From NCBI GenBank assembly GCA_964250345.1, contig CAXUFZ010000002.1:1-51030 (forward strand): DNA of 51,030 bases. The letters run 5' to 3'. Of the stretch, positions 1,379 to 19,336 are shown piece by piece. The stretch's first letter is position 1; every line of letters begins with the position of its first letter. This stretch comes from an uncultured Rubrobacteraceae bacterium. GTDB taxonomy: Bacteria > Actinomycetota > Rubrobacteria > Rubrobacterales > Rubrobacteraceae. The position numbers and the translations under genes are program-made. Below the pieces are notes generated by a model. It was given only the letters and a program-made list of their open reading frames with translations, did not search any database and was not told the DNA's origin.

Positions 1379-1400
1379 ACGTCCGCCACCCGGCACATTT
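1379..1400 (-). promoter_or_regulatory. Conserved EPS-locus palindromic motif, copy 1
   Basis: AAATGTGCCGGGTGGCGGACGT; -10-like GAGGAT 19 nt downstream (1359-1354). Confidence 0.65.
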
Positions 1401-3030
1401 ACCAGGGCATCGCCTCCAGGACGCGCCCGATCACGCCGGCCACCACGGCCACGAACCCGTCCGACCTTGCGGGGGCCGGACGGTTGTTCTCGGGGGACGC
1501 CGGTAGCCCGTTCTCCTGCAGGAGGACATCCTTCTCCACGTCCGTGAGGTAGCGTCCGCCCTTCTCGGCCGGGGTGTTGTTGTATTGGGAGAGCGTCTCC
1601 AGCCTGTTGGCCCACTTGAAGCGGTACGCCCGGCCCTCGGCGCCGTCGTACCAGTAGGCGCCGCCCGCCCCGGTGTTGGCGGAGGAGGGGGCGTAGATGC
1701 TGGGCGCGCCGGCGGAGATGGCGCCCGGGCTCTCGTTCCAGAAGACCGCCGCGCGGTACCCGGAGCCGGTCGTCTCGTCCACGATCACGCGGTTGTTCCC
1801 CACGACGACCCCCGTGGTCGCGTCGTAGGACCGTTCGTCGGCGTCCCGGCGGTTCTGCTGGACGACGCCGATGCCGGAGGAGTTCCAGGCCAGGACGTTG
1901 CCGTCCACGGCGCCGTTGCGCGAGCCGGCGACGACGATGCCGGCGCCGCTGTAGGAGTCCCCAGCACCCCAGCCGTTCTCCCAGAGCACGTTGTTGGTGA
2001 CGGCGAAGTTCTTCGTGATCTCGACCCGGATGCCCTGGCTCGGGTGGTGGTGGACCCTGTTGTTCGAGACCTCGACGGAGGTCTGGCGGGCGTTGACCAC
2101 GTCGGTCCAGATGCCGATGTCCCCGTTGTGGTGGACCTCGTTGCCGGAGACGTTGGCGGTCTTGGCCTGGGCGATCTTCATGCCGCCGGCCTCCCAGCCG
2201 GGGTCGAAGCCCTCGGTGTTGTTCTCGTAGACGCGGTTGGAGAGGATCTGGACGCGCGCGTCGTTGCTGCCGATGCCGAGCTGCCCGGCGTGGTGGATGT
2301 CGTTGTCCTCGGCCACCAGCGCGTCCCCGAGCGTGAACGCCAGGTTCCTGCCGTGGGCGTACGAGAGGTCGTTGCCCCGCACCGTCCACCCGGAATACCC
2401 GCCGTTCCAGAGCCCGTCGAACCCGGCGTGCCGCATCTCGACGTTCCGCACGGTGACGCCGTTCGACGCCCCGTAGACCCACCGATCCCTGACGGTGACC
2501 TCGACGGTCCGGCCCGTCGGATCCTCGCCGAGCACCACGCGCCGCCCCGCCGCGAGCGCGAACTGGCCCGCCCCCGGGCCGGAGGAGACCTGCGCGAGCT
2601 GCCTCCCGTTCACGAAGACCTGCTCGGGCCGCTCGCAGCGCCGGCTCGCGCCCACGCACCTGTAGCGGTCGGGCGACTCCAGCGCCGGCACGCTCCTCGC
2701 GCTGGTCCAGCCGGCGCCGCCCTTCGTCCACCGCTTCCACACGTCGGAGCCGCGGACGGCGCCACCCCCCGCGCCGTCGAGCGTGAGGGGCTTGCCCACC
2801 TTGACCGTCTCGCGGTACACGCAGCCGTCCGTCAGCTCGACCGTCGAGCCCGGGGCCGCCGCGTTGACCTTCGCCTGCAGGGACTCCTGGCAGGTGGGTG
2901 GAATCTCCGTGGTCTGGGCCGAGGCCGTACCCGCGTTCGGCAAGAGCGCGGCCAACGGCAGGACCAGGCACGCCGCCAGCAGCAGACGCGCGGTCGCGGG
3001 AGATCTCTTGCCACGTCGAATCTTTTTCAT
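1399..3030 (-). CDS. Secreted right-handed parallel beta-helix (pectin-lyase-fold) protein
   Basis: Signal peptide; SLQAKVNAAAPGSTVELTDGCVYRE cap; repeated V.GN.VHHNG..GI Asn-ladder repeats; GGAGGGG RBS. Confidence 0.85.
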   Translation of the reverse strand: MKKIRRGKRSPATARLLLAACLVLPLAALLPNAGTASAQTTEIPPTCQESLQAKVNAAAPGSTVELTDGCVYRETVKVGKPLTLDGAGGGAVRGSDVWKRWTKGGAGWTSARSVPALESPDRYRCVGASRRCERPEQVFVNGRQLAQVSSGPGAGQFALAAGRRVVLGEDPTGRTVEVTVRDRWVYGASNGVTVRNVEMRHAGFDGLWNGGYSGWTVRGNDLSYAHGRNLAFTLGDALVAEDNDIHHAGQLGIGSNDARVQILSNRVYENNTEGFDPGWEAGGMKIAQAKTANVSGNEVHHNGDIGIWTDVVNARQTSVEVSNNRVHHHPSQGIRVEITKNFAVTNNVLWENGWGAGDSYSGAGIVVAGSRNGAVDGNVLAWNSSGIGVVQQNRRDADERSYDATTGVVVGNNRVIVDETTGSGYRAAVFWNESPGAISAGAPSIYAPSSANTGAGGAYWYDGAEGRAYRFKWANRLETLSQYNNTPAEKGGRYLTDVEKDVLLQENGLPASPENNRPAPARSDGFVAVVAGVIGRVLEAMPW

Positions 3031-3058
3031 ATCCCCTCCGGTCTTTCTAGATCTCTGT

Positions 3059-3829
3059 TTACCAGTAGGCGCCGCGGCGGAGCCTCCGGGCGGCGCGCAG
3101 GCCCCTCGCCAGGGCCCGTTTCGAGCGGCGGGTCAGGGGACTTTCGTCGGGGAGGTAGCGGGCGCGGATGCGGTCGTCCTCGACGTTGCTCTCGGCGCGC
3201 ATCTTGCTGTTCTTCTGCTCCGGGTAGCGGCGCATTTGGGACCAGGGGCGGGGGACGTGGTGGATCCCGGCGTGCTCGGCGAAGCGGGCCCAGAGGTCGG
3301 CGTCCATCGCCAGGTCGAAGGCGGGGTCGAGGCCGCCGACCCTCTCGTAGAGGCCGCTCCTCCAGAAGGTCGAGGGCTGGGGCAGGTAGTTGTAGGTGTA
3401 CATAAAGAGGAAGCGGTCGAAGTCGATCTCCTTCTGCCACCGGATGGGCCGGCCCTCGGCGTCGATCCACCTCGCGTCCCCGTAGACGACCTGCCAATCG
3501 GGGTTGTCCACGAACGTCTGGGCCACCTCGAAGAGGGAGCCCGGCTCCAGGAGGTCGTCCGAGCACAGCCAGCCCATGATCCCGCCGGTCGCCAGCCCGA
3601 AGCCCCGCGCCAGCGCCTCCGTCTGCCCCCCGTCGGGCTCGCTCACCCAGTACGCCAGCCGGTCCGAGTAGCGCTCCAGGACCTCCCGGCTCCCGTCCGT
3701 CGAGCCCCCGTCCATGACGATGTACTCCAAATTCGGGTAGCCCTGGTCCAGCACGCTCTTCATCGTCGTCTCCAGGTAACCGGCCTGGTTGAACGACGGC
3801 GTCACCACGGATATCTTCGGGTAGTCCAC
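3059..3829 (-). CDS. Glycosyltransferase family 2
   Basis: PKISVVTPSFNQ..LETTMKSVLDQGY, DGGSTDGS, WLCSDD motifs; start reassigned to GTG 3829 with GGAGGAG RBS. Confidence 0.9.
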   Translation of the reverse strand: MDYPKISVVTPSFNQAGYLETTMKSVLDQGYPNLEYIVMDGGSTDGSREVLERYSDRLAYWVSEPDGGQTEALARGFGLATGGIMGWLCSDDLLEPGSLFEVAQTFVDNPDWQVVYGDARWIDAEGRPIRWQKEIDFDRFLFMYTYNYLPQPSTFWRSGLYERVGGLDPAFDLAMDADLWARFAEHAGIHHVPRPWSQMRRYPEQKNSKMRAESNVEDDRIRARYLPDESPLTRRSKRALARGLRAARRLRRGAYW

Positions 3830-3831
3830 CG

Positions 3832-5394
3832 CTATCTCCTCCCCCAAACCACGCCCCGTCGCGGGCGGTGTACGATCGTGCCGCGCAGCGCCCCGCCCGG
3901 GAAAGCCGGGCGTCCCACGCTCTCTGTCTTCTCCGGCGGCCGATTCTCCTCGAAGCTCGGCGCGACGGACATGATGCCGAGGGCGACGAAGGCAGCCAGG
4001 AACGGGAACTCCATGTACTCCTGCATCAGGGAGTCGGTCAGGTTGAGCAGCAGGTAGAACGTCAGGAACAGGAAGGCCAGCCACCCGAGCGGCCGGCCGC
4101 GGCGGGCCGTTTTGAGGGCGACGAAGATCGCCGCCGTCCAGAAGGCCAGGAAGAGGGTCAGGCCTATCGCGCCGGTGTTGAGCAGCTCTTCGAGGAAGCC
4201 GTTGTGCGCGGAGACGACGGGGAAGCCGACCAGTTGCTCCATGTAGGCGAGGCGGTCCGGGTGCCAGAAGGCCGCGAAGCCCACGCCGGTCAGGGGGCGC
4301 TCCATCTGCGGGATCAGGACCTCCCACAAAGGCACGCGGCCCGTGAGGGAGAGCGAGAGCTCGGCGTCGTCGCGGGTGAGGAAGGGCGCCACGGTGCCCA
4401 GCAGGCCGCCGAGGTACGCGACGCACAGGCCGGCTACCGCCAGGGCCGCCAGCCCGGCCTGGAACACCCTCTCCCGCAGCCGGACGCCGTAGATCAGGTA
4501 GACCAGCCCCAGCGCCAGCAGCGCGAACAGCAGCGGCCCCCGCGTCTTCAGCAAGAGGACGGGGAGCGCCAGAAGCAGGAGGAGCGTCCAGTCGCGTCCC
4601 CTCCACCGCCGCATCCCCGCGAAGGACGCCACGACGAGGGCCATCCCGGCGATGAGGACGGGGCGCGCGACGTAGGTTGTGAACCCGCCGGAGATCTCCA
4701 CCCGCTCGCCGGGGTCCAGGATGTTGAACTGGTCCAGGTGCAGCGGCAGCGGCAACAGGATCACGAGCGCCGAGACGACCCCGGCAACCGTAACGTGCCG
4801 GAGAAACAACCTCCCGCCGTCCCCCCGCCCGCCGTAGAACCCCGCGCCGAGCCCGAAGCTGCCGAGCGTCACGAGCGAGAAGGCCACCAGGTTCCTAACG
4901 GTCAGCGTCGGGTAGACGCTCCAGAACAGCGTGGCGTAGCCCCACAACATGTAGACCCCCCACAAACCCATCAGCCGGCGGTACGCCGGGCCCACACGTC
5001 CCACCGCCGGCACCAAAAACAGCATCCCGACCAGGCCGAAAGCCGCGACCAGCAACTGGTTCTGCAGCGACCCCGACGCCGCCCCTACCCCGACCTCCCT
5101 GGGCGAATAGGCGGCGAGCGGCGCCACCATCGCCACCCACCACAGCAGCAAGAACGCCGACACAGCCCTGTCCACGGTGGTGCCTCGACGCCTCACGACG
5201 GCCACCTCCGCCGCGACGACGCCGGGAGCGCGCGGGGAACGTTCGCTCCTCGTAAGCAGCCAGAGGCCGACGCCGAAGACGAGCGCCACCGCGACGAACG
5301 TCGGGGCCGGCGCGTAGGCCACGCCCGCCCCGCCCAGGCACGCCAGGGCGGCGAGCGCGACGACCGACGCCATCTTCGAGGGCAAAAAACTCAT
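3832..5394 (-). CDS. O-antigen ligase / Wzy-type polysaccharide polymerase family membrane protein
   Basis: About 12 hydrophobic segments; LTGRVPLW, PLTGVG, SAHNGFLEELLNTGAIG motifs; start ATG 5394 uncertain. Confidence 0.85.
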   Translation of the reverse strand: MSFLPSKMASVVALAALACLGGAGVAYAPAPTFVAVALVFGVGLWLLTRSERSPRAPGVVAAEVAVVRRRGTTVDRAVSAFLLLWWVAMVAPLAAYSPREVGVGAASGSLQNQLLVAAFGLVGMLFLVPAVGRVGPAYRRLMGLWGVYMLWGYATLFWSVYPTLTVRNLVAFSLVTLGSFGLGAGFYGGRGDGGRLFLRHVTVAGVVSALVILLPLPLHLDQFNILDPGERVEISGGFTTYVARPVLIAGMALVVASFAGMRRWRGRDWTLLLLLALPVLLLKTRGPLLFALLALGLVYLIYGVRLRERVFQAGLAALAVAGLCVAYLGGLLGTVAPFLTRDDAELSLSLTGRVPLWEVLIPQMERPLTGVGFAAFWHPDRLAYMEQLVGFPVVSAHNGFLEELLNTGAIGLTLFLAFWTAAIFVALKTARRGRPLGWLAFLFLTFYLLLNLTDSLMQEYMEFPFLAAFVALGIMSVAPSFEENRPPEKTESVGRPAFPGGALRGTIVHRPRRGVVWGRR

Positions 5395-5488
5395 CGACGC
5401 GCGTCGACGGAACACGAACTCGGTTCTCCCGCTCTGGTCACGAGGGTCTCCATACAAGGTCAGATGATGGCGCGGGCGCGACCCGCCC

Positions 5489-5510
5489 GCATCCGCCAGA
5501 CGGCACATTA
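5489..5510 (-). promoter_or_regulatory. Conserved EPS-locus palindromic motif, copy 2
   Basis: TAATGTGCCGTCTGGCGGATGC; CATCAT 19 nt downstream (5469-5464). Confidence 0.7.
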
Positions 5511-5516
5511 ATCCGC

Positions 5517-5555
5517 GGGCGGGCCGGAACCCGGTGCCGGGCCTTCGGCCTGCCC
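5517..5555 (-). terminator. GC-rich hairpin after the sulfotransferase operon
   Basis: GGGCGGGCCGGA...TTCGGCCTGCCC imperfect inverted repeat right after the stop at 5557; no clear U-tract. Confidence 0.35.
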
Positions 5556-5556
5556 C

Positions 5557-6348
5557 CTAGCCTCGCCGTCTCCGGGGAACGCCGCCGGTCAGGGCGGCGG
5601 ACCTGTCTTTCGCGGACGTTTCGGAGAGTCTGCCGTGGGCGGCCCGGGCCCGCTCGACGAGAGGACCCAGGTCGAGGGATTCCACCTCCTTCTTGAGCGC
5701 GGCCTTCAGGTTGGCCTTGGAGGCGGAGGGGCGCGCGATCTGCTCCTCGACCAGCACGCTGCCGCGCCTGGCCCTGTGCGACGCCTCGATGCTGGCGAAG
5801 ACCTTCTCCACGTTCTTCTCATCGTGCCCGAAGACGCCGAACGAGGTACCGAACCTCCCGTTGACCCGTTCTATGACCGGGCCGTAGTCCCGCGTCACCT
5901 CCTCGAAGGCGCCGAGCACGAAGTGGTCGCGGTAGCCGGCGACGGCCTCGTAGAAGGAGACGTAGTAGCGGAGTGCGCCCTCCGCCGTGTAGCGCGGGTC
6001 GCGCAGCATCAGGGAGAGGGCGGCGTCCACGGGGTCCCGGAGGAGGACCAGGGCGGGGACGCCGAGCCGGGCGGCGCGCACGATCTGGGCCGGCGCGTGC
6101 ATGTGGTGGGCTATGCGGACCTCGCGCTCCTGGGCCTCCCTGAAGGCGAAGACGGCGAACGTGTTCCCGGACCGGGGAAACCCCTCCACGACGAGGTCCG
6201 TCTTGCGGTCCACGAGCAGGTCCCCGTACCCCTGCCGCGCGCCGTAGACGCCGAAGAAGAGGCGGGGATGCCTGCCCACGTAGACCCGCGCGCGCTCCTT
6301 CGCGGCGCCGATCACGCCCGGTCCGGTTTCCTTTCTACTTGTGGACAT
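5557..6348 (-). CDS. Sulfotransferase-like P-loop protein
   Basis: VEGFPRSGNTF (5'-PSB-like loop) and LLRDPVDAALS (3'-PB-like motif). Confidence 0.7.
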   Translation of the reverse strand: MSTSRKETGPGVIGAAKERARVYVGRHPRLFFGVYGARQGYGDLLVDRKTDLVVEGFPRSGNTFAVFAFREAQEREVRIAHHMHAPAQIVRAARLGVPALVLLRDPVDAALSLMLRDPRYTAEGALRYYVSFYEAVAGYRDHFVLGAFEEVTRDYGPVIERVNGRFGTSFGVFGHDEKNVEKVFASIEASHRARRGSVLVEEQIARPSASKANLKAALKKEVESLDLGPLVERARAAHGRLSETSAKDRSAALTGGVPRRRRG

Positions 6349-7309
6349 GCACGCGCCTCCAATCGGGCAACATGCCGAGCTTGCGGCGCAGGATCTTGGG
6401 CTCCCCGGCGGCGTAGGCGAGGCCGTAGCAGGCCCGGCCCGCGTCGGAGAGGAACCCCCGCCCCCGGATGGCGTCGAGCTCCGACATCAGATCCTCGAGG
6501 TCGTAGCCCATCGTCTTGAGGCGGTCGCGGCCGATCCAACGCAGGTAGCGCCGGCACCAGGCCTTCCTCAAGGGGCCCGCGAGCGTCGTCTTCCAGCGCT
6601 CCAGGGGCTCCCGGCTCACAGCGGCGTACCGTCGCGTCCCCGTGGGATCGCCCTTCCTACCGTTCAACGACACGCCGGAGAAGGATGAGAGGACCGAGGG
6701 GTCAAAGCCCAGATCGAGGTGACGAAAGACCCGCTCCCAGCTCGCCTCCGGCCCCGTCACGAGGTCCTCGAACCGGACCGCGAGGGCGTTCGAGGCGTTG
6801 TCCTCGTAGGCGTTTACGAGGTTTTCGAGGCCATCGTAGAGGTCGATCTTGTGCCGGTACAGGTTCCACCGGCCCCCGCCCCACGTCTCGATCACGGAGG
6901 CGGCGACGGCCAGGGGGTTGCGCCACAGGAACAGGTGCCCGGCGTCGGGGAAGGCGGAGATGACGTCGGGGGCGATGAGGTGGTAGCGCGGCGTCTTGTC
7001 CAAAAAGTATCGGGCGCCGTCCGGACTTGCCTTCTCGTACAGCCCCTCGGCCAGACCGCGGACCGCGGCGAGGTAGTCCTGCTTGCCGTTGGGCAGCGTT
7101 CCGCAGAAATCCTCTAGAGCCGTGACGGCCGAGGTGTGGTTGTACTCGGCGTAGAGGCCGCGATCCCGCAGCGCGTAGAAGAAGGGGAGCAGGAGCCAGG
7201 GCTCTGAGGCGGTCGCCACCGCGTCGTGCGCCGCCAGCACGCGCTGGGCCAGCGTCGAGCCCGACCGCGGCAGCGAGAACAGGAAGAGCGGTCGCGGCCC
7301 GTTGCTCAA
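6335..7309 (-). CDS. Sulfotransferase family protein
   Basis: FLFSLPRSGSTLAQRVL, FLDKTP, WRNPLAVAAS, VRFEDLV; TTG start overlaps upstream TGA (TTGA coupling). Confidence 0.88.
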   Translation of the reverse strand: MSNGPRPLFLFSLPRSGSTLAQRVLAAHDAVATASEPWLLLPFFYALRDRGLYAEYNHTSAVTALEDFCGTLPNGKQDYLAAVRGLAEGLYEKASPDGARYFLDKTPRYHLIAPDVISAFPDAGHLFLWRNPLAVAASVIETWGGGRWNLYRHKIDLYDGLENLVNAYEDNASNALAVRFEDLVTGPEASWERVFRHLDLGFDPSVLSSFSGVSLNGRKGDPTGTRRYAAVSREPLERWKTTLAGPLRKAWCRRYLRWIGRDRLKTMGYDLEDLMSELDAIRGRGFLSDAGRACYGLAYAAGEPKILRRKLGMLPDWRRVHVHK

Positions 7310-8178
7310 GAGTCCCCAAGCTCGTAGCCGAGCTCGACCAGGAGCGGCCCGACGACCTCGTTTACGGCCTTCACGTGCTCCTCCGAGAACTCGTCCCGCC
7401 AGCCGCCCGCGCGCCCCTTGCGGAACGTGCTCCCCGAACCGAAGAGGTTCTCCCGCACCCGGAGGAACTCGTCGTCCTCCCTCTCGATGCCGAGGTATGC
7501 CGCGACCTCCCTGACGGCCCTGAGCTGCGCCCGTTCGTCGCCCCCCCCTTTGGGACCGACGAGGTCCTCGAACCGCACCACGCAGGCGCCGCCGCGCTCG
7601 CCCCAGGCGAGGAACCCGCGGTAGCGCTCGTCCAGGGACCGTAAGCGGTGTTCGCCCAGCTCGCCGCCGCGGATGGAGAGCATCAGCCGCTCGCCGTCGT
7701 CCGGCAGCGCCAGGTACGCCCGGTGGGCGAAGTGGTCCGTCCGCCCCTTCAGGTGGTGCATGTGGGAGACGGCCACGTCCCTCGGGTCGCGCACGATGCA
7801 GACGGTCTTCATCCCCTGCTCCCCGAGCAGCGCGTCGAACTGCGGGCTGTAGGCGCAGTGGGCGCTCACCGCCGAGCCCTCCGGGACCCGGCCCAGGCGC
7901 GCCTCCAGCCACCGGCGGTTGACCGGCGCCGGGAAGTCTATGCCGACGGGCACCGTCTCCGCGCCGCGTTCCGTGAAGAGCTTGCGCGTGAGGGCGAGCC
8001 GGTCGAGGCCCACGTTCCTCCGCACGCCCTTGCGGTGGTGCTCGTAACCGAGCAGCGTGAGCAGGCGCAGGAGCAGGTGTGTCCCGCTCTTGGGGATCGA
8101 GTTCGCCACCACCCGGCCCCGCGCGGCCCGCTTGGCGGGAGACTCCCCCGTCGCGGGGCTCGCGCCGCGGACTACCAT
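7306..8178 (-). CDS. Sulfotransferase domain protein (paralog of 8172..9146)
   Basis: NSIPKSGTHLL, VRDPRDVAVS, VRFEDL, TFRKGRAGGWRDEFS (RKGxxGxW PAPS motif); start ATG 8178. Confidence 0.9.
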   Translation of the reverse strand: MVVRGASPATGESPAKRAARGRVVANSIPKSGTHLLLRLLTLLGYEHHRKGVRRNVGLDRLALTRKLFTERGAETVPVGIDFPAPVNRRWLEARLGRVPEGSAVSAHCAYSPQFDALLGEQGMKTVCIVRDPRDVAVSHMHHLKGRTDHFAHRAYLALPDDGERLMLSIRGGELGEHRLRSLDERYRGFLAWGERGGACVVRFEDLVGPKGGGDERAQLRAVREVAAYLGIEREDDEFLRVRENLFGSGSTFRKGRAGGWRDEFSEEHVKAVNEVVGPLLVELGYELGDS

Positions 8179-9146
8179 CCTTCGTCCTCTTCGTAGCCGA
8201 GCCGGACGAGAACGTCCTGCGCCTGCTCCTTGACGGCCTCTTTGTGCTCGGCGGAGAACTCGTCGCGCCACCCTCCCGAGCGGCCCTTTCGGAACGTCCG
8301 GCCCGACCCGAAGAGGCCGGCCCGTATCTCCCGCAGCCGACCCTCCCCAACCTCGAGCCCGAGGTGGGAGACGGTCCTCGCCACCGCCTCGCGCTGGGCC
8401 TCCTCGCCGCCGCCGCCCGCGGGGCCGACGAGGTCCTCGAACCTGACGAGCAACGCCCCGCCCCGGCGCTCCCAGTCCAGAAAGTTGCCGTAGCGCTCCC
8501 CCATCGGGAGGATGCGGTGCCCGCCGAGCACGCCGCCCCGGATCGAGAACATCAGCCGCTCGCGGTCGTTGGGGAGGGCCAGGTACGCCTTGTAGGCCGG
8601 GTGACGGGGCAGCTTCTTGAGGTAGTGCATGTGGGAGACGGCGGTGTCGCGCGGGTCGCGCGCGATGCACACCACCTTCAGGCCCTGGGAGCGGACGATG
8701 CCCCCGAAGCCCTCGCTGTAGGAGCAGTGGGCGCTCACGACCGAGCGGTCGGGGACTTTCTCGAAGCGGTTCTCCAGCCAGCGGCGTCCGATCTCCCCGG
8801 GCGACTCGACGCCGAGGGTCACCTTCTCGGGCCCGCGGTCCCTGATGAGGCGCCGCAGCCAGGGTATCCGTCCGTCCGTCACCAGGTGCGGCCCGACGCC
8901 GAGGAACCGGCCCGGCTCCCTGGCGCCGGCGGCCTTCCGCAGCAGCCGCTCGTGGCGGGGGCCACCGTCGTCGCGGACCGGGGTGGGCCCGAAGCCGCCG
9001 AAGTCCACGATCCCGTACCCCAGCTCGGTCAGCAGGCGCAGGAGCAGGTGCGTGCCGCTCTTGGGGATCGAGTTGGCGAGCACCCGTCCCCGCGCGGCGA
9101 CCGCGGTCCTCTCGGGCGTGGGGGTATGCATGACGGTCCTCCTCAT
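8172..9146 (-). CDS. Sulfotransferase domain protein
   Basis: NSIPKSGTHLL, ARDPRDTAVS, TFRKGRSGGWRDEFS. Confidence 0.9.
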   Translation of the reverse strand: MRRTVMHTPTPERTAVAARGRVLANSIPKSGTHLLLRLLTELGYGIVDFGGFGPTPVRDDGGPRHERLLRKAAGAREPGRFLGVGPHLVTDGRIPWLRRLIRDRGPEKVTLGVESPGEIGRRWLENRFEKVPDRSVVSAHCSYSEGFGGIVRSQGLKVVCIARDPRDTAVSHMHYLKKLPRHPAYKAYLALPNDRERLMFSIRGGVLGGHRILPMGERYGNFLDWERRGGALLVRFEDLVGPAGGGGEEAQREAVARTVSHLGLEVGEGRLREIRAGLFGSGRTFRKGRSGGWRDEFSAEHKEAVKEQAQDVLVRLGYEEDEGW

Positions 9147-10555: not shown

Positions 10556-10565
10556 CTTCCCCGGG

Positions 10566-11297
10566 CTAGTCCTTCTCGTAGGAGCCGTAATAGCCGTAGT
10601 AGCCGGCGTTCTTGGACTCCTTCACCTTGTTGGCGACGGTCCCGATCACGTTGGCCCCCACGCCCTGCAAGACCTTCATGGCCTGCCGGACGCTCTTCTT
10701 GCGCGACGCGCCGGCGTCGAGGACGAGCAGGACGCCGTCGCCGTGGCGGGCGAGGACGGCCCCCTCGGAGACCGTGCAGACCGGCGGCGAGTCGAGGAGC
10801 ACGTAGTCGTACTCGCCCCGCACCCGCGAAAGCAGGTCCGTGAAGCGCCGGGAGCCCAGGATCTCCGCCGGGTTCGGCGGCACGGCCCCGGCGGGCACGA
10901 GCTTGAGTCCCGGGACGGGCTCCTGCATGGCGTCTTCCAGGCTGCTCTCCCCGGCCAGGACGTCGACGAAGCCGGGCGAGCCGTTCGCCCAGAACAGCTT
11001 GTGCTGGGCCGGGCGGCGCAGGTCGCAGTCCAGGAGCAGGACGCTCTTGTCCGCGCGGGCCAGCGAGATCGCTAGGTTCGCGCACGTCGTGCTCTTGCCC
11101 TCCTTCGGGTTCGCGCTGGTCACGGCGATCACCGTCGGCGGCGCGTCGATGAACGCGTAGAAGAGGTTGGTCCTGAGCATCCTGTAGGCCTCGGCCGCGA
11201 TCCCCGAAGGCTCGTGCAAAGAGACCAGGCTCTCCGACGAGAGGTCCTTCCCGTCGCGCGCCGGCTGTTCCCCGACCCTTCTCTGAAGCAGGCTCAT
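10566..11297 (-). CDS. CpsD/CapB-family bacterial tyrosine kinase
   Basis: AEAYRMLRTNL, Walker A SANPKEGKST, DCDLRRP, VLLDSPP, C-terminal Tyr cluster GYYGYYGSY; start ATG 11297. Confidence 0.92.
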   Translation of the reverse strand: MSLLQRRVGEQPARDGKDLSSESLVSLHEPSGIAAEAYRMLRTNLFYAFIDAPPTVIAVTSANPKEGKSTTCANLAISLARADKSVLLLDCDLRRPAQHKLFWANGSPGFVDVLAGESSLEDAMQEPVPGLKLVPAGAVPPNPAEILGSRRFTDLLSRVRGEYDYVLLDSPPVCTVSEGAVLARHGDGVLLVLDAGASRKKSVRQAMKVLQGVGANVIGTVANKVKESKNAGYYGYYGSYEKD

Positions 11298-11301
11298 CCC
11301 T

Positions 11302-12036
11302 CTATCCTTTCCGGGCGCGGACGGCCGCGAAGACGGGCACGACGCCGAAGTTGGGCACGCCGGAGATCTCCTCGACCTCCTCGACCGAGCGCCACCCGTC
11401 GTCCAGGTTCTCCAGCAAGAACGCGACCCCGACACCGAGCATCAGCCCGAGCCCGAGGGCCAGGAGGCCGTTGCGTAGGGGATCGGGCGAGACGGGGCTC
11501 TGCGGCGTCGAGGCGCCCTCCCAGACCGACGCCGTGATGATGCTCGCGCCGGCCTCGGAGGAGGAGATCCTGCCGGCCGCCGCGTTCGCGACGGCGTTGA
11601 CGGTCTCCCGCACCCCGGCGGGGTCCGAGCCGGCGTAGGTGATCTGGATGAACTGCGTCTCGTCTACCTGCTCGACGGTGAGGTTCTGCAAGATCTGGCC
11701 CGGCGCGACCCCGGAGCCGAGCGCGAGGGCGGCGTCCTCGGCGACCGGCCGGCTCGCCACCGCCACGGTCATGGTCTGCGTGAGCGGCTGCAGCCCCTGG
11801 AGGTCGTTGCTCGAAAGCGCGGCCTCCGGGTCCGTGGGGGCCTTCTGGCCGACGAGCAGCTTTGCCGAAGCCTCGTAGGTCGGCGTCTGCATCATCGACG
11901 CGCCTACCGCCGCGCCCGCGAAGACGAGCGCCACGAGCGCCACGACCCACGCCCGCCGCCAGACGATGCCGGCGTAATCCATCAAAGAAGCGTACCGCTC
12001 GCCGTCAACCGCAGTCCCGTGCACCGAAGATCCCAT
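11302..12036 (-). CDS. CpsC/CapA (YveK)-type polysaccharide co-polymerase, kinase activator
   Basis: Two TM helices, TPTYEASAKLLV, A..P.SPVSP, EEVEEISGVPNFGVVP; ATG 12036 with GGAGG. Confidence 0.88.
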   Translation of the reverse strand: MGSSVHGTAVDGERYASLMDYAGIVWRRAWVVALVALVFAGAAVGASMMQTPTYEASAKLLVGQKAPTDPEAALSSNDLQGLQPLTQTMTVAVASRPVAEDAALALGSGVAPGQILQNLTVEQVDETQFIQITYAGSDPAGVRETVNAVANAAAGRISSSEAGASIITASVWEGASTPQSPVSPDPLRNGLLALGLGLMLGVGVAFLLENLDDGWRSVEEVEEISGVPNFGVVPVFAAVRARKG

Positions 12037-12089
12037 CCATAATAGCCTCCACCAACGCCCCGGATTATCGGACCGGGTACGGCCCCCCG

Positions 12090-12111
12090 GCATCCGTCGA
12101 ATGGCACATAT
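12090..12111 (-). promoter_or_regulatory. Conserved EPS-locus palindromic motif, copy 3
   Basis: ATATGTGCCATTCGACGGATGC; GATAAT 20 nt downstream (12069-12064). Confidence 0.7.
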
Positions 12112-12141
12112 TGGGGCGGATGCCGGGGGTCGGTGTCCGGT

Positions 12142-12263
12142 CGGGAGTCGCGAGGCGCTCGCTCCGCTCGCTTCGGGAGTCGGGAGTCGTAAGAGCCGAA
12201 GAGCCGGGAGCCGAATTTCTCGACTCCCGACTCCAGATTCCCGACTCCAGATTCCCGACTCCC
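12142..12263. repeat. REP-like element built from GGGAGTC heptamers, copy A
   Basis: GAGGCGCTCGC-N3-GCTCGCTTCGGGAGTCGGGAGTCG followed by inverted CGACTCC arrays. Confidence 0.75.
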
Positions 12264-12270
12264 AGGGTTT

Positions 12271-14811
12271 CTACCCCACGGTCACCCGCGAGACTGCCGG
12301 GGCCGAGTTGTCGAAGGCGTCGTTGACCGTGAAGGTCACGCGGCGGTCGCCGGCGGTGGGGTTGGCGGCGGTGTTGTTGTAGGTGACGGACTTCAGGGCC
12401 TTCTCGTAGTCGGCCTTGGAGGCGCGGCCGGTGAGGCTCAGGGTTCCGGTGGCCGCGTCGTAGGACTTGGAGATGGTCGTTCCGGCGACGTCGGCGTCGA
12501 GCTTCTCGGCGACGCCGTCGGGGTTGTTGGCGAGGGTTATGGTGGCGGACCTCATGTTGGCGTCGTCGGCGTCGAAGACGGCGACGTTGCCGCCGGCGAG
12601 TTGCGTGGGGCCGCCGGAGAAGGTCGCGGCGTGGTCGGTGTTGCCCGACGTGAGGAGGTTGGAGGCCGGGACGATCTGGCGTCCCTGACCCGGGTACGCC
12701 CAGGCGAGCCTCGCCACGGCCCCGCCGCCGTTCTCGTAGTAGTCCATCTGGATGTCGTAGCGCTTGCCGGCCTCGAGGGTGATGGTCCCTGAGTCGTCGG
12801 CGGGGGCGCGGTCGGTCCAGTTCTCGACGAGCGTCTTGCCGTCCACGAAGAGGCGGACGCCGTCGTCGGCGGTCGTGGTGAAGGTGTACTCGCCGCTCTG
12901 GGGCGCCTCGACCTGGCCCGTCCAGCGGGCGCTGTAGGTGTCGGGGCCGATGGACGGGTGCGGGGAGCCGTTGCCGAAGTCGAAGTTGACGTGGCGGTCG
13001 ACGCGGTTCACGCTCGGGCCGGTGAGGTCCATAGTGTCGAAGTACTCGGCGTCGAGTCCGCCGGCGTTCACGGCCCCGAAGAAGAGGTTATTGGAGGGGA
13101 TGATCTGGCGCCCCTGGCCGGGGTAGGCCCACGCGAGCCGCGCCACGGCGCCGCCGCCGTCCTCGTAGTAGTCGAGGCGGATATCGTAGCGTTTGCCGGC
13201 CTCCAGGGCGACGGTGCCGGAGTCGTCGGTGGGACCGTGGTTCGTCCAGTTCTCGACCACGAGGTTGCCGTCGACGTAGAGGCGCACGCCGTCGTCGCTG
13301 TTGGTGGTGAAGGTGTAGTCGCCGGTGACGGGGGCCTCGACCTTGCCGGTCCAGCGGGCGCTGTAGGTGTCGGGGCCCATGCTGGGATCCGGCGAGCCGC
13401 CGCCGAAGTCGAAGTCGACCGTCGGGTCCGCGCGGGTGACCTCGGCCCCCGTGAAGTCTATGTTGTCGAAGTAGGTGGCGTTGAGGCCGCCGCGCTGCAG
13501 GCCGTTCTGGCGCCCGAAGCCGTCGAGGTCGACCTTGGGCTTGGAGTAGTTCACCGGGCGGAAGGCCGGGTCGAGGGTGAAGCGGGCGAAGTTGGACTGC
13601 GCGACACCCGAGACGCCCGTGAAGCCGCCGCCGACCCACAGGTAGTCGCCGACGGTCTGCATCGTCCAGGCGCCGTTGTAGTTCGGCCGCGTCTTCTGGT
13701 CGAGGGACGGGATCCAGGTGCAGTCTATGGCGCCGTTGGCCGGGTTGACGGCCACGATGCCCTTGAGGTACTTGCCGCCGCAGGCCTCCTGGTCGAGCGG
13801 GTTGATGCCGAAGTGCCCGCCGATGACGAGCTTGGAGTTGTCCGGGGTCATCGCGATGGTCTGCGGGTTGCCGACCAGCCCGAAGCGCCAGACCTGGGTC
13901 CCCTCGTTGCCGTTGTCCAGGCGGAAGGAGGCCGCGTAGTTCGGCTTCTCGCCGAAGGCCACGTGCAGGCGCTGGCCCGTCACGATCATGTCCCAGCCGA
14001 TCTGGGGGCTGTCGAGCACGCCGGCGGGTATGGCCCAGGGATCGACGTTGCCGGTGGCGATGTCTACCCGCGCGATGCTCTGGCGAGCCTCGGTGACGCC
14101 GTTGGAGCCCTTCACGGTCGTGAACCCGCCGGCGACGAAGGCCGTGGCCCCGTCGGCGGCGAACTTGATGTCGTGGACGGTCGCGTTGGCCCGGGGCTTC
14201 CAGTTGGCGTCGAGCGCGCCCGTCGAGGCGTTCACGAGCGCCAGGTTCTGCCGGTTCGTCCCGTTGACCGAGAGGAACTTGCCCCCGACGAACAGGTTCT
14301 GGCCGCTCGGGGTGATGGCGAAGACGGTGGAGCCGCCGTCCCCCACCCTCGGGTTGAAGGGCTTGACCGCGCCCGTGGCCCCGTCCACGGCGGCCATGTT
14401 GGTCCTCGGCTGGCCGGCGACGGAGGTGAACTTGCCCCCGACGTAGACCTGCCCGTTCTTCACGGCCAGCGAGCGCACGACGGGCGCCACGGCGCTGTCT
14501 CCCGTCACGGCGGGTTTCCACGAGGCGATGGCCGCCCCCGTGGAGACGTCTATGGCGGCCAGGTTGCTCACGGCGAGGGTCTTGCCGCCCTGGCCGGAGG
14601 GCTTCTCCCTCACCTGCGAGAACTTGCCGCCAATATACAGCGTCTTGCCGTCCTCCGAGAGCGCCGACGCGTAGACGATGCCCGTGGTCATCCAGACGCC
14701 GGGGTCTGGCGTCTGGCGCATGTTGACGGCCTGCGCGGGCATGACGCCCAAGACCAGCCCCGAAAGCGCAAAGATCGTCGCAAAGAATACCAACGTGATC
14801 CTACGGGTCAT
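12271..14811 (-). CDS. Secreted beta-propeller protein with two PA14 domains and a C-terminal Ig/cadherin-like domain
   Basis: Signal peptide; propeller repeats; two PA14 units (YSARWTG.VEAP..G.YTFTT.(S/A)DDGVRL.VDG); C-terminal TGTLSLTG.AS.ADYEKALKSVTYNN..R.VTFTVND. Confidence 0.88.
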   Translation of the reverse strand: MTRRITLVFFATIFALSGLVLGVMPAQAVNMRQTPDPGVWMTTGIVYASALSEDGKTLYIGGKFSQVREKPSGQGGKTLAVSNLAAIDVSTGAAIASWKPAVTGDSAVAPVVRSLAVKNGQVYVGGKFTSVAGQPRTNMAAVDGATGAVKPFNPRVGDGGSTVFAITPSGQNLFVGGKFLSVNGTNRQNLALVNASTGALDANWKPRANATVHDIKFAADGATAFVAGGFTTVKGSNGVTEARQSIARVDIATGNVDPWAIPAGVLDSPQIGWDMIVTGQRLHVAFGEKPNYAASFRLDNGNEGTQVWRFGLVGNPQTIAMTPDNSKLVIGGHFGINPLDQEACGGKYLKGIVAVNPANGAIDCTWIPSLDQKTRPNYNGAWTMQTVGDYLWVGGGFTGVSGVAQSNFARFTLDPAFRPVNYSKPKVDLDGFGRQNGLQRGGLNATYFDNIDFTGAEVTRADPTVDFDFGGGSPDPSMGPDTYSARWTGKVEAPVTGDYTFTTNSDDGVRLYVDGNLVVENWTNHGPTDDSGTVALEAGKRYDIRLDYYEDGGGAVARLAWAYPGQGRQIIPSNNLFFGAVNAGGLDAEYFDTMDLTGPSVNRVDRHVNFDFGNGSPHPSIGPDTYSARWTGQVEAPQSGEYTFTTTADDGVRLFVDGKTLVENWTDRAPADDSGTITLEAGKRYDIQMDYYENGGGAVARLAWAYPGQGRQIVPASNLLTSGNTDHAATFSGGPTQLAGGNVAVFDADDANMRSATITLANNPDGVAEKLDADVAGTTISKSYDAATGTLSLTGRASKADYEKALKSVTYNNTAANPTAGDRRVTFTVNDAFDNSAPAVSRVTVG

Positions 14812-14919
14812 AGCTTAACTCCTCCTCGGTTACCTGTTCTACACCCACCGCGCGGGAAGACCGGCGCGGTCTCGAAGCTCTCTAGTCGCAGCAAAGGTTA
14901 CGTCCCGGGGCCGCCGACC

Positions 14920-14941
14920 ACATCCGCCGAACGGCATATTT
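14920..14941 (-). promoter_or_regulatory. Conserved EPS-locus palindromic motif, copy 4
   Basis: AAATATGCCGTTCGGCGGATGT; TAACCT 19 nt downstream (14900-14895). Confidence 0.75.
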
Positions 14942-15042
14942 CGGTCTCTAGGTCTCTAGACTTCAGGGGTCTTGGGGGTGGTTGGCGGCGCCGGGTCCCG
15001 GCACACCGCCCCTCGAGACCCGGGAGACCTCAGAGCCCCCTT

Positions 15043-16560
15043 TCAGCAGGCGTCGCGGCTGAAGAGCAGGGTCTTCGCGGTGCGGGCCAGGAGGATGACG
15101 TCGAGCCAGACGGACCAGTCGTGGACGTAGTGGGCGTCCATGCCGACCCTCTCCAGGAAGGAGGTGTTGGAGCGGCCGGCGACCTGCCAGGGGCCGGTGA
15201 TGCCGGGGGTGACCCGCAGGATCTCGCCCTGCGTCTGCCCGATGTCCTCGGACTCCCGCGGCAGGTAGGGCCGCGGCCCCACGAGGCTCATCTCCCCCCG
15301 CACCACGTTCCAGAGCTGCGGCAACTCGTCGAGGCTCGTCTTGCGCAGCAGCCGCCCGATGCGGGTCACGCGCGGGTCGTCCTTGAGCTTGTGGTACGTG
15401 AGGTACTCCTCGCGCTTCTCTGCGTCCTCCTCCAGGACGCGCTGGAGCAGCGCCTCGGCGTCGGGCACCATCGTGCGGAACTTTATGCAGGGGAAGAGCC
15501 GGCCGTCGCGGCCCATGCGGAAGTCCTTGTAGAAGACCGGCCCGCGCGACTCCAGCCGCACCAGCGCCGCCAGGACCAGGATGACCGGGAGGACGAAGAG
15601 GGCGCCCGCGAGGGTGGCGGCGAGGTCCATCGCGCGCTTCGCCCGCTGGGCCCAGGGGTTGAGCAGGTTGTGCTTGATCTCCACCCCGAACGTCCCGCCG
15701 AGGTCCCGCGCCACGACGGCGGAGTTCGTGATCCCACCGAGATTCGGGATGACGACGATGTGCCTGAAGCTGGCGCTCGCGAGGCTTGTGAAGCGGGCGA
15801 GGTGCTCGCGCCGCGTGTGGGGCATGGCGAAGATCGCCGTGTCGAGCCCGTGCTCCCCGGCCAGCGAGGCCGCGTCGGCGAGGTTGCCGCGGTAGGGCAC
15901 GCCTTCGAGCGACTCGGTCGCCGGCGCCCGGTTGTCGAAGACGCCGATGGGGTTGAGCCCGAACTGCCACTCGTCGCGCAGCACCTTGATGACCCGCATC
16001 CCCGGCTGCTCGGCCCCGAAGACGACGACGGGCTTGCCCCAGACGCCGCCCTTCATCATGGCCCACCGGGTCAGGTTCCTGGCGAACGGGGCCGCGACCA
16101 GGAGCCCGGCGACCCAGGCGAAGAGCAGGAGCCGCGAGAGGCTGTCCCCGGCCTGCGAGGCGAAGGCGAAGGTCGTGGTTATGGCGAGGGTGACGAGGAG
16201 GGCGAGCGTCTGGCGCCGGAGCTCCTCGACGGGCCCGAGCCCGTAGCCCGGGTAGAGCCCGAGCAGGGCCCGCAGCCCGATCCAGGCCGCCGCGTTCGGC
16301 AGGATGCTCGCGACGGCCATCCCGCCCGAGAGCGGGTAGTAGCCCCACACGCTCTGCGCCAGAAAGGCCGCCTGCCACACCGCGAACGCCAGCAGAAAGT
16401 CCGAAGAAACCAGGAGGGCGACCACCAGCGGCTGCCGCCGGAACCGCGCCCGATCCCCGAGCAGCGAGAGCCCGCGCGCGACGCTTCCACCCACGGCCCG
16501 GCCCGGCGCGGCGACGGCCGCGGCGGTCATTGCCCCTGCCCTGCCCTGCCTAGCCGCCAT
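15043..16560 (-). CDS. wbaP: Undecaprenyl-phosphate hexose-1-phosphate transferase (WbaP-like priming glycosyltransferase)
   Basis: KRAMDL, IKFRTM, DDPRVTRIGRLLRKTSLDELPQLWNV..GEMSLVGPRP, PGITGPWQV; N-terminal TM and Rossmann-like domains; GGAGG RBS. Confidence 0.9.
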   Translation of the reverse strand: MAARQGRAGAMTAAAVAAPGRAVGGSVARGLSLLGDRARFRRQPLVVALLVSSDFLLAFAVWQAAFLAQSVWGYYPLSGGMAVASILPNAAAWIGLRALLGLYPGYGLGPVEELRRQTLALLVTLAITTTFAFASQAGDSLSRLLLFAWVAGLLVAAPFARNLTRWAMMKGGVWGKPVVVFGAEQPGMRVIKVLRDEWQFGLNPIGVFDNRAPATESLEGVPYRGNLADAASLAGEHGLDTAIFAMPHTRREHLARFTSLASASFRHIVVIPNLGGITNSAVVARDLGGTFGVEIKHNLLNPWAQRAKRAMDLAATLAGALFVLPVILVLAALVRLESRGPVFYKDFRMGRDGRLFPCIKFRTMVPDAEALLQRVLEEDAEKREEYLTYHKLKDDPRVTRIGRLLRKTSLDELPQLWNVVRGEMSLVGPRPYLPRESEDIGQTQGEILRVTPGITGPWQVAGRSNTSFLERVGMDAHYVHDWSVWLDVILLARTAKTLLFSRDAC

Positions 16561-16623
16561 CGGTCCTCCCGTAAGGTCTCTGAATCACCGTTACAAGGAG
16601 GTTAAGCAGCGGCGCCGGGACCA

Positions 16624-16645
16624 GCATCGGCCAGGCGGCATATTT
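16624..16645 (-). promoter_or_regulatory. Conserved EPS-locus palindromic motif, copy 5
   Basis: AAATATGCCGCCTGGCCGATGC; TAACCT 19 nt downstream (16604-16599). Confidence 0.75.
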
Positions 16646-16723
16646 CAGTCGGGCGTGTGCCCGGTGGGGGTAGCCCGTTTGGGTTAGGGACGGGGCCCAG
16701 GCGGTCCTCCTCGCTCCCGCTCG

Positions 16724-16920
16724 GCGGGAGTCGGGGGGCCCACGCTATAGCACGCATCGGGAGTCGGGGGTCGGGAACGCCGTTGGGGTTTCGGCGCCCG
16801 CTTCCCGTCGGGAGGCGCTCGCTATCGCTCGCTTCGGGAGTCGGGAGTCGGAAAACCCGGGTTTGACCTTGCGCCTCCCGACTCCCGAAGCGGGGCGGAG
16901 CGCAGCCCCGCGCCTCCCGA
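16724..16920. repeat. REP-like element built from GGGAGTC heptamers, copy B
   Basis: Core GAGGCGCTCGC-N4-GCTCGCTTCGGGAGTCGGGAGTCG at 16812-16850 plus inverted arm CTCCCGACTCCCGAAGCG. Confidence 0.75.
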
Positions 16921-16957
16921 ACAACAAGAGCGCCGAAGCACCCGGGCGTACACGCCA

Positions 16958-17323
16958 CTAAATCGCGTGCTTGGCCGTGCGGTCGACGAGGGTGAGGATG
17001 TCGGTGAGTTGGATGTTGTCGATGGTCGAGCGCTCGTCGCCCTCGCCGAAGACGGAGGTGGTGTCCCCGTGCGGGTACAGCTCGAGCCAGGTCGGGACGG
17101 CGTCGCGCACCGTCGGGGTGGCCTCGTCGCAGAGGACCATGTCGGGCTGGAGGCGGAAGACCTCTTCCTCCAGGCCGCCCGGTTCCACGAGCACGAACTC
17201 GACGTCGGGCCTGAGCTGCCCGAGCACCTCGGCCGTGACCTCCCGGTAGGCGCGGGGCTCGTTGGCGACCAGCACCCGCGTCCCGTCGGAGCGGCGGCCC
17301 ACGGAGGAAGGGTTGTCTACCAT
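16958..17323 (-). CDS. Hypothetical protein resembling a degenerate receiver domain
   Basis: RVLVANEPRAYRE...LQPDMVLCD pattern like REC beta1 to beta3; start ATG 17323 chosen (TATAAT at 17339-17334). Confidence 0.6.
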   Translation of the reverse strand: MVDNPSSVGRRSDGTRVLVANEPRAYREVTAEVLGQLRPDVEFVLVEPGGLEEEVFRLQPDMVLCDEATPTVRDAVPTWLELYPHGDTTSVFGEGDERSTIDNIQLTDILTLVDRTAKHAI

Positions 17324-17396
17324 GGCGGTGATAATTATACCCGTTCGGTTCGGTCGCTCATAACACGGTGAACTATGCGGCCCGGACCTTTCCGTC

Positions 17397-17418
17397 GCAT
17401 CTGTCATGCGGCATATAT
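17397..17418 (-). promoter_or_regulatory. Conserved EPS-locus palindromic motif, copy 6
   Basis: ATATATGCCGCATGACAGATGC; CATAGT 19 nt downstream (17377-17372). Confidence 0.65.
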
Positions 17419-17440
17419 TCGTCCGGGCGAACCGGGGGCT

Positions 17441-18145: not shown

Positions 18146-18180
18146 AGCCTATCTTCCTCCTTCGGTGTGTGGGCCGGCGG

Positions 18181-19215: not shown

Positions 19216-19336
19216 GTCCTGGCGACCAGCCCCTTCGGTGCAAAGTTCGTCTCCCGTGCGTCGGTTTGCCGCGTCAGCCGGGATGATAGGTGGACCATGC
19301 CGGTGACCGCATGGTCCATTTGAGGGATCTTTGCGG

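Follow-up and report, generated by a model that had tools for sequence, protein, structure and literature searches.

Introduction

In enterobacteria, the capsule genes are controlled by RcsB/RcsA, a NarL/LuxR-type system. In Streptomyces, OsdR is reported to bind AGGGCCGATCGGCCCT (PMC5069765), and BldM and the BldM-WhiI pair are reported to bind TCACcCgnncGgGTGA and TGnnCCGnnCGGGTGA, respectively (PMC4125116). The base contacts described for DosR are made by Lys179, Lys182 and Asn183 (PMC4082495), and the class II boxes of TraR are described as overlapping the -35 element (PMC3907764). Here, we describe a 22-bp box that occurs six times on the minus strand of a 51,030-nt stretch from an uncultured Rubrobacteraceae bacterium (contig CAXUFZ010000002.1, positions 1 to 51,030). 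This stretch, hereafter the window, comprises a replication-origin region (dnaA, gyrB, parAB, leuS) and a minus-strand exopolysaccharide (EPS) locus, upstream of which are found a PAS-HisKA_3 kinase, a REC-GerE response regulator and a 121-aa open reading frame (ORF).

Direct observations cover the box and its conservation, the fixed gap of 19 nt (sometimes 20 nt) to a TANNNT hexamer, the orientation and targets of the box, and its linkage to LuxR-type helix-turn-helix (HTH) genes with a G-T-[VA]-K-x-H helix. The response regulator encoded at 17441-18145 is the likely binder of the box, and we assign a probability of roughly 0.78 to the full mechanism predicted from these sequences. A dimer of the regulator, likely phosphorylated by the neighbouring PAS kinase, would sit on the pseudo-palindromic box, whose centre lies 42.5 nt before the predicted start of transcription. 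From there, the dimer would switch on the housekeeping-sigma promoters that serve EPS, sulfation and secreted-protein genes. Class II activation by a LuxR-type dimer is itself a conventional, textbook mechanism.

Box copies in the window and the source genome

An earlier note on this DNA had placed six 22-mers and their downstream hexamers on the minus strand, and all are found where it put them. Box 1 (1379-1400) is followed by a weak -10 hexamer, GAGGAT (1359-1354), and lies upstream of a DUF5122 propeller gene, and box 2 (5489-5510; CATCAT, 5469-5464) precedes wzy-like, GT2 and beta-helix genes. Box 3 (12090-12111), with GATAAT (12069-12064) at a 20-nt gap, precedes the genes for Wzz, a tyrosine kinase, a flippase and sulfotransferases. 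Box 4 (14920-14941) and box 5 (16624-16645) share the hexamer TAACCT (14900-14895 and 16604-16599) and lie upstream of a PA14 protein gene and of wbaP, respectively. Box 6 (17397-17418; CATAGT, 17377-17372) begins 22 nt past the regulator stop codon, upstream of a pseudo-receiver gene. The only correction to this placement concerns the statement that all copies are intergenic, as 2 nt of copy 1 lie within the stop codon of ORF 1399-3030. The proposed consensus has exactly six matches in the window even when up to two mismatches are allowed, against a mean of 0.02 in 100 shuffles. The imperfect dyad described for it is present, but the family-wide form is cleaner, with a core GCCR-NN-YGGC flanked by AT..AT.

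A motif scan of the source genome (G000, a 93%-complete assembly of 3.87 Mb; other G numbers denote genomes of relatives, L numbers fetched loci and C numbers contigs), which the note had proposed as a check, finds sites far above background, and the box recurs in family genomes. A matrix built from the six copies yields seven sites of at least 25.7 bits in the genome, the next best scoring 18.3 bits, and recovers every copy when each is left out in turn. After refinement on relatives, the matrix yields eight sites of at least 23 bits (next 16.9), a count reached by none of 360 column-shuffled matrices (mean 0.08). A chance origin of the boxes is rejected by both the shuffled-sequence and the column-shuffled-matrix controls. 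The refined logo reads AAATRTGCCR-NN-YGGCnGATGY. The regulon had been drawn across the EPS locus, and six copies do lie there, but it extends beyond the window. The seventh site (G000:C153:4724+; GAACAT at a 19-nt gap) precedes genes for a GT4 glycosyltransferase, a WecG-like protein and GDP-mannose dehydratase (gmd), and the eighth (G000:C119:360+; 23 bits, TAACAT at 19 nt) precedes a TauE/SafE gene. A variant box, AAATGTAACTTCCGGCCGATGT, is also found at G000:C26:10161 (+), with TAAACT at 19 nt, upstream of a gene for a membrane protein with a C-terminal LuxR HTH (ALGTVKNHTSNA); it is perhaps the autoregulatory site of a paralogue.

Promoter geometry

Using a matrix trained on the 22-mer only, 96 sites from 40 loci and the window were searched for downstream hexamers. 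TANNNT is present at a gap of 19 nt in 52 of these sites and at 20 nt in 10, and the looser YANNNT in 70 and 16, respectively. When only the self-complementary core was searched, in 114 loci picked by regulator or cluster position, TANNNT follows 66 distinct matches at gap 19, compared with 1-11 matches for any single one of the other gaps between 12 and 27. The ATR flank lies upstream in 48 of these symmetric-core matches and is reversed in one. Among 38 exact matches hand-sorted as lying outside the Rubrobacteraceae (three, from records titled Chloroflexota, may belong inside the family), an ATG stands exactly 6 nt past the hexamer in 10 and an ATG or GTG in 13, and the next-best offset reaches 4; the same offset holds no ATG and a single ATG/GTG among 37 family matches. 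If these offset-6 start codons are leaderless starts, as we infer, the hexamer occupies -12 to -7 and the box is centred at -42.5. For the six window boxes, transcription starts are accordingly predicted near 17365, 16592, 14888, 12057, 5457 and 1347 (minus strand), about 31 nt downstream of each box.

For a spacer of 17 nt, the hexamer at -35 would fall on box positions 19-24, where T reaches 87% and G 94%. A TG belongs to the housekeeping -35 consensus, and its coincidence with the T and G of the box likely explains the asymmetry of the latter: the downstream half would overlap the -35 element, and sigma region 4 would recognise the conserved TG in it, giving a one-way site. The hallmarks of class II activation (a centre near -42, overlap with -35 and a fixed distance to -10) are all present, and the class II geometry claimed in the note is supported by the independently emerging -10 element and by the leaderless start codons in other actinobacteria.

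The overlap with the -35 position could also suit a repressor, in which case the adjacent regulator would bind the box and occlude -35. This is improbable, since the strict 19-nt gap and the one-way orientation fit a polymerase-touching activator rather than a steric repressor, as is well established, and the -35 hexamers are poor (ATGYGN), so that the promoters would have little strength by themselves. Another reading takes the motif as a promoter element of an alternative sigma factor, for instance Rubrobacter WhiG (sigma-28); the right half of the motif resembles the sigma-28 -10 element GCCGATAA, and WhiG acts in Rubrobacter. We regard this as the least probable of the readings considered. 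TAAA/GCCGATAA shows 5-7 mismatches in 12 positions at all eight sites and hence, at up to two mismatches, fits none of them, which leads us to reject a WhiG promoter; the box has dyad symmetry, and the separate TANNNT and leaderless starts lie 19-31 nt farther on. A protein of the CRP/FNR family bound at a class II site is scarcely more credible, despite the 22-bp length, the A-rich left flank, the five CRP-type genes of G000 and the adenylyl-cyclase-like genes among the targets in other classes. CRP sites leave their central six bases free, whereas those of the present box are conserved. Five box-less genomes, which also lack the helix signature of the regulator, hold 5-8 CRP genes each, with the G000 helix STREAVSK in all five, and none of 30 CRP loci has a box. 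The conserved centre and the missing linkage to CRP genes led to the rejection of this candidate.

A second box lies 23 nt upstream in 4 of 166 strong sites, and these distal copies end without GATG. Tandem boxes 23 bp apart, with centres near -65.5 and -42.5, were seen in L036 (three promoters), L107, L093, L094 and L034. Cooperative second sites are known for DevR, and the tandem boxes in a few relatives suggest cooperative binding here as well.

The box follows the adjacent response regulator

The predicted binder (17441-18145, minus strand) combines a receiver domain with a GerE HTH whose recognition helix is SVGTVKNHVEHI. Its receiver has the acidic pocket, the phospho-accepting aspartate, the threonine and the lysine; D20, D21, D66, T94 and K116 are invariant in 18 of 18 aligned homologues. 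Together with the adjacent HisKA_3 kinase, these are features of a NarL/FixJ-type regulator. The kinase, a soluble PAS_3-HisKA_3-HATPase_c protein (18181-19215, minus strand) with no box upstream, is likely cognate. None of the 25 best NCBIfam families of named NarL-type equivalogs reaches its cut-off (the best, MadR, scores 163 of 300), and the other LuxR HTHs of G000 are at most 51% identical to that of the regulator. In a quick tree of 119 HTHs over 66 columns, the regulator falls in a 79-row clade (Shimodaira-Hasegawa approximate likelihood ratio test, 92) and is the sole member found in G000. An ungapped match to DosR (query 1-62 against 146-207) places the contact positions K179, K182 and N183 at Gly199, Lys202 and Asn203, of which Gly199 and Lys202 are invariant in the 18 aligned homologues.

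The box recurs in about half of the family genomes. Of 33 genus genomes, 19 contain a strict pattern, and of 104 family genomes, 56 contain a pattern with the -10 element at 19 nt and up to two mismatches (2 control hits in each case); an even sample of the phylum gives 2 of 186 genomes outside the family. Searching the class yields the same 104 genomes as searching the family, in keeping with a likely placement of the source in Rubrobacteraceae. Family tallies include the unpublished genomes G066, G100 and G101, and no claim depends on those three alone. Within the family, boxes of at least 17 bits were tallied near regulator genes having at least 200 nt of downstream sequence (5 rows dropped). 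Regulators with a KNHVE helix have a box within about 175 nt past the stop codon in 13 of 26 cases and within 1 kb in 18; the corresponding numbers for other clade members are 9 and 10 of 48. Among 40 non-clade LuxR genes, including those of G000, none has a box within 1 kb downstream. The helix signature, scored by a back-translated helix pattern, also co-occurs with the box: across 104 genomes, 39 have both, 7 the helix only, 17 the box only and 41 neither, and across the 53 genomes that are at least 90% complete, the counts are 23, 4, 5 and 21. Three exceptions were resolved, as G052 and G070 carry boxes at gap 20 and G049 encodes a variant-helix regulator followed by a box.

EPS genes themselves served as a control. 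Wzz scores above cut-off in 47 of the 53 near-complete genomes, and 30 wzz loci were picked by score regardless of box. A box lies within 1.5 kb of wzz in 9 of 22 loci whose genomes encode the signature helix or its G049 variant, and in none of 8 from others; priming-transferase loci from five signature-less genomes have none either (0 of 9), which brings the EPS loci of signature-less genomes to 0 of 17. The box thus tracks the regulator rather than the EPS genes, being near 18 of 26 orthologues, 0 of 40 other LuxR genes and 0 of 17 signature-less EPS loci. The assignment to the adjacent NarL/LuxR regulator, already made in the note, draws support from synteny, co-occurrence and these controls, and from the regulator being the only clade member found in G000.

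Another LuxR-domain protein of G000, for example a MalT-like protein on C404 (helix SVGTVKAHVHHI), could bind or share the boxes. Closely similar helices accompany boxes elsewhere (L134, SIGTVKAHVQHI; L188, SPGTVKAHTSSI), and the clade regulator was not found in some genomes with boxes. We consider this quite unlikely, given the absence of nearby boxes from all 40 non-clade genes and their repeated presence beside orthologues of the adjacent regulator.

Several observations weigh against assigning the box to this regulator. Its own operon in G000 has no box; among the 26 close orthologues there are 8 with none inside 1 kb, and 13 of the 22 wzz loci in signature genomes have none either. Two genomes that are 99-100% complete, G077 and G078, encode a KNHVE-helix regulator and have no boxes above background; their helix is preceded by KT rather than S-x. 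Conversely, the clade regulator was not found, despite 1-5 pattern matches, in G047, G104 and G107 (94-95% complete, in 330-380 contigs) or in G050 and G102 (73-77% complete). A glycine at the helix position of Gly199 also occurs in other G000 LuxR proteins without a nearby box. On the technical side, the HTH tree is a quick one with weak resolution on its 66 columns, some of the loci later tallied had gone into training the refined matrix, and the co-occurrence counts include kin that are not independent.

Two variations of the helix were also seen. In two complete genomes (L041/L119 and L043/L120), KTGT replaces S-x-GT beside acyl-CoA metabolism genes, with no boxes, and such regulators may possibly have changed specificity. 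In G084, ATACGCC boxes lie beside a KVHVQH regulator, a possible case of covariation between helix and box.

Relation to described systems

OsdR and DevR/DosR are NarL-type regulators with an adjacent kinase, and their 16-bp dyad has the core GCCG-NN-CGGC, which is also that of the present box; the DosR K182 and N183 positions are conserved in the window regulator. At positions 3-5, counted outward from the dyad in either direction, 87-100% of sites match the OsdR core; farther out, the agreement is lost. Agreement with the outer AGG/CCT of OsdR/DevR is 1%, 56% and 11% at -8 to -6 and 17% and 1% at +7 and +8, the outer bases here being TRT/nGA. Further differences are the glycine in place of DosR K179, the PAS kinase and the targets, which are stress or dormancy genes for OsdR/DevR and EPS genes here; no universal-stress or dormancy target was seen among the window targets or the 72 first downstream ORFs scanned (see below). 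Membership of the DevR/OsdR regulon is rejected on the outer bases, Lys179 and the targets.

These likenesses allow a tentative view of recognition. As in OsdR/DevR and BldM, the two HTHs would each read a half site of 7 bp, with a 2-bp spacer between the halves. Lys202 and Asn203 would read the shared GCCR core, and the glycine in place of DosR K179 would account for outer bases unlike those of the DevR/OsdR box. We infer this code from the comparison of Gly199, Lys202 and Asn203.

The BldM and BldM-WhiI boxes share the 16-bp 7-2-7 geometry and a CCG-NN-CGG core, and the asymmetry of the present box is similar to that of the group II site. BldM and WhiI are orphan atypical regulators of Streptomyces development, whereas the window regulator is typical and has a kinase. 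Agreement with the BldM half site at box positions -7 to -5 is 0-1%, and BldM/WhiI membership is rejected, as neither the orphan atypical receiver nor the TCAC outer half site is found here. The same comparison raises the idea that the adjacent regulator pairs with a second LuxR-type protein, as BldM does with WhiI, and that the asymmetry of the box reflects two unlike half sites. The published WhiI half (TGnnCCG) is matched by the left half of the box and BldM by the right half in 5 of 7 positions, among them the non-palindromic G at +7, and many relatives have several clade paralogues. However, a single clade member was found in G000, the same asymmetry is seen at STAND-LuxR genes in other classes, and it is tied to promoter direction (48 to 1), with the four distal tandem copies lacking the GATG end. 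A heterodimer is therefore unlikely, if the best placed of the alternatives, and we retain a dimer of the adjacent regulator as the preferred reader.

TraR likewise binds as a dimer through a LuxR-type HTH, and its 18-bp inverted repeat lies some 45 nt before the start, over -35 (PMC3907764). It differs in being activated by an autoinducer and, as described there, in making no contact to the central six bases, which are conserved here, where the input is a receiver domain. RcsB/RcsA works alike in that a NarL/LuxR regulator switches on a Wzy-type polysaccharide locus, and RcsB is not orthologous (60 bits against a cut-off of 235; another phylum and sensor). The PimM/RazD and SCO6993 sites do not match the box. 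The system is outside DevR/OsdR, BldM/WhiI and RcsB membership but works like them. No prior account of the motif or of a Rubrobacter EPS regulon was found in the literature searched, which was mainly open-access main texts, with RegPrecise/PRODORIC outside its scope. The note did not recognise the motif as a described one. Its core resembles the OsdR and BldM/WhiI boxes and only the flanks differ. It is apparently an undescribed NarL/DevR-type class II activator site.

The box beyond Rubrobacteraceae

A GTDB-wide scan for exact matches, with one genome per species, returned 74 loci, and many of the named box-bearing records are Rubrobacteraceae. Fourteen of the 74 matches lie within 300 nt past the end of a LuxR HTH gene, and the helix is G-T-[VA]-K-x-H in all 14. 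By hand sorting, 12 of these fall outside the family, in Solirubrobacterales, Thermoleophilaceae, Acidimicrobiales, Microlunatus and a Chloroflexia record. Carriers in culture include Rubrobacter taiwanensis, with boxes in L174 and L200, and Microlunatus parietis, which has both regulator and box (L210). Seven more matches stand at the start of cyclase-like ORFs, which belong to STAND-LuxR genes. In seven fetched regions, STAND-TPR-GerE genes, of which some also encode a cyclase domain at the N terminus, have boxes directly before and after them, and L263 is another case. Because the box-flanked proteins share only the HTH with the window regulator, the reader of the box is pointed to as a LuxR-type HTH. 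A search with the window regulator at E 1e-13 did not find the STAND-LuxR proteins in two of five genomes.

Cyclase-STAND-LuxR (mclx-like) regulators are described from actinobacteria (PMC3466318). In Thermoleophilia and Acidimicrobiia, proteins of this architecture are flanked by the same box and share the G-T-V-K-x-H helix. They differ in their input domains and targets, and the box also precedes their own genes, unlike that of the window regulator, which suggests that they are autoregulated through it. The cyclase-STAND-TPR-LuxR genes of L223-L229 and L263 have a box on both sides, many are apparently leaderless, and the gene is split over two ORFs in L224; downstream targets identified by eye include FAD oxidases, peroxiredoxin-like and GFA-like genes.

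A broader proposal, to which we give about even odds, is that one G-T-[VA]-K-x-H helix and an ATRTGCCR-NN-YGGCnGAT box at -42.5 form a module that has been put to use repeatedly, in at least three classes of actinobacteria and in some other phyla, under input domains unrelated to one another (receiver, cyclase-STAND-TPR, MalT-like). In Rubrobacteria, this module would have become a master switch for making sulfated polysaccharide and matrix proteins, in a programme with diguanylate cyclases also fed by it, and the change from Lys179 to glycine would be a one-residue code distinguishing it from the DevR box.

The EPS locus and family targets

The genes downstream of the boxes, all on the minus strand, encode EPS synthesis, sulfation and secreted proteins by domain annotation, as the note had it. 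They comprise a WbaP-type priming glycosyltransferase (15043-16560; TIGR03022, 460 bits against a cut-off of 403) and a likely secreted protein with a propeller and two PA14 domains (12271-14811). The run at 5557-12093 encodes Wzz, a polysaccharide tyrosine autokinase, a flippase and three sulfotransferases and contains one ORF that matches no Pfam family. It is followed by a Wzy_C polymerase/ligase, a GT2 glycosyltransferase and a right-handed beta-helix protein (1399-5508) and by a likely secreted DUF5122 beta-propeller protein (168-1316). The unmatched ORF (5557-6348) closes the sulfotransferase run; although Pfam returns nothing for it at E 0.05, it is kept in the EPS clusters of relatives (L004, L010). 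Between the pseudo-receiver gene and box 5 (16660-16960, minus strand), an intergenic stretch rich in CCCGACTCCCGA-like repeats is predicted to form a long hairpin (-161.5 kcal/mol, z -3.4). A look-up of RNA runs for 14700-19400 returned none.

Across the family, 72 of 86 listed first downstream ORFs were scanned after duplicates and doubtful ORFs had been removed, from loci partly picked as box-rich. By hand count, 33 of the 72 serve the synthesis or export of polysaccharides, including 10 priming transferases, 7 Wzz, 4 Wzy_C, 3 WecG and 3 sulfotransferases. Other targets include several secreted propeller or carbohydrate-binding proteins and two PAS-GGDEF proteins. The latter are diguanylate cyclase genes behind boxes in two relatives (L033:8445-9329 and L035:4397-5344), and a link between the box regulon and cyclic di-GMP through them is possible.

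Stand-alone pseudo-receivers

The predicted box 6 target (16958-17323, minus strand; 121 aa) is a stand-alone protein with a predicted receiver fold (mean predicted local distance difference test score 87; wide structural search Z 10.8, root-mean-square deviation 2.5 over 90 residues), for which Foldseek returned no match at E 0.001. Its family has no conserved catalytic residues. A box lies upstream of 6 of 13 homologues in fetched loci (scores 16-29) and of none of 31 metagenome homologues, many of which follow other LuxR regulators. The latter count weakens the idea of a dedicated feedback part of the regulon; the protein is likely a target of box 6 that is not specific to this regulon. A perfect TATAAT in the 17334-17339 region (minus strand), about 10 nt before the pseudo-receiver ATG at 17323 and downstream of the box-linked -10 element, is a possible second promoter of the gene.

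The family, which has no Pfam or NCBIfam match, has six copies in G000 (the window; two on C294; C297; C384; C74) and further members in L230-L261. Its genes often stand directly after LuxR-type regulator genes of several kinds, and stand-alone pseudo-receivers are possibly general modulators of NarL-type regulators. A second small family, with an ILGGDPVVG..LELLL-like motif and no Pfam match at E 0.05, comes next after the regulator and box in several relatives (L032:7407-7838, L035:8524-8931, L029:722-1150, L027:8614-9021, L036:13793-14215, L093:2905-3282) and looks like another degenerate receiver.

Implications for Rubrobacteria

Rubrobacteria are a deep actinobacterial class whose members are known to tolerate desiccation and radiation and to grow as biofilms on stone. 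Work on their regulation in the literature found is limited to the WhiG pilus regulon, and no master switch for slime production, as predicted here for the regulator, was found in the literature searched. If the module is real, its box would be the first predicted operator for the poorly understood cyclase-STAND-LuxR proteins, and it offers a natural variant for working out site choice by NarL/DevR-type helices. With the box as a search pattern, the regulon can be listed for any Rubrobacteraceae genome, and the pair of regulator and site is a testable one for exopolysaccharide production in Rubrobacteria.

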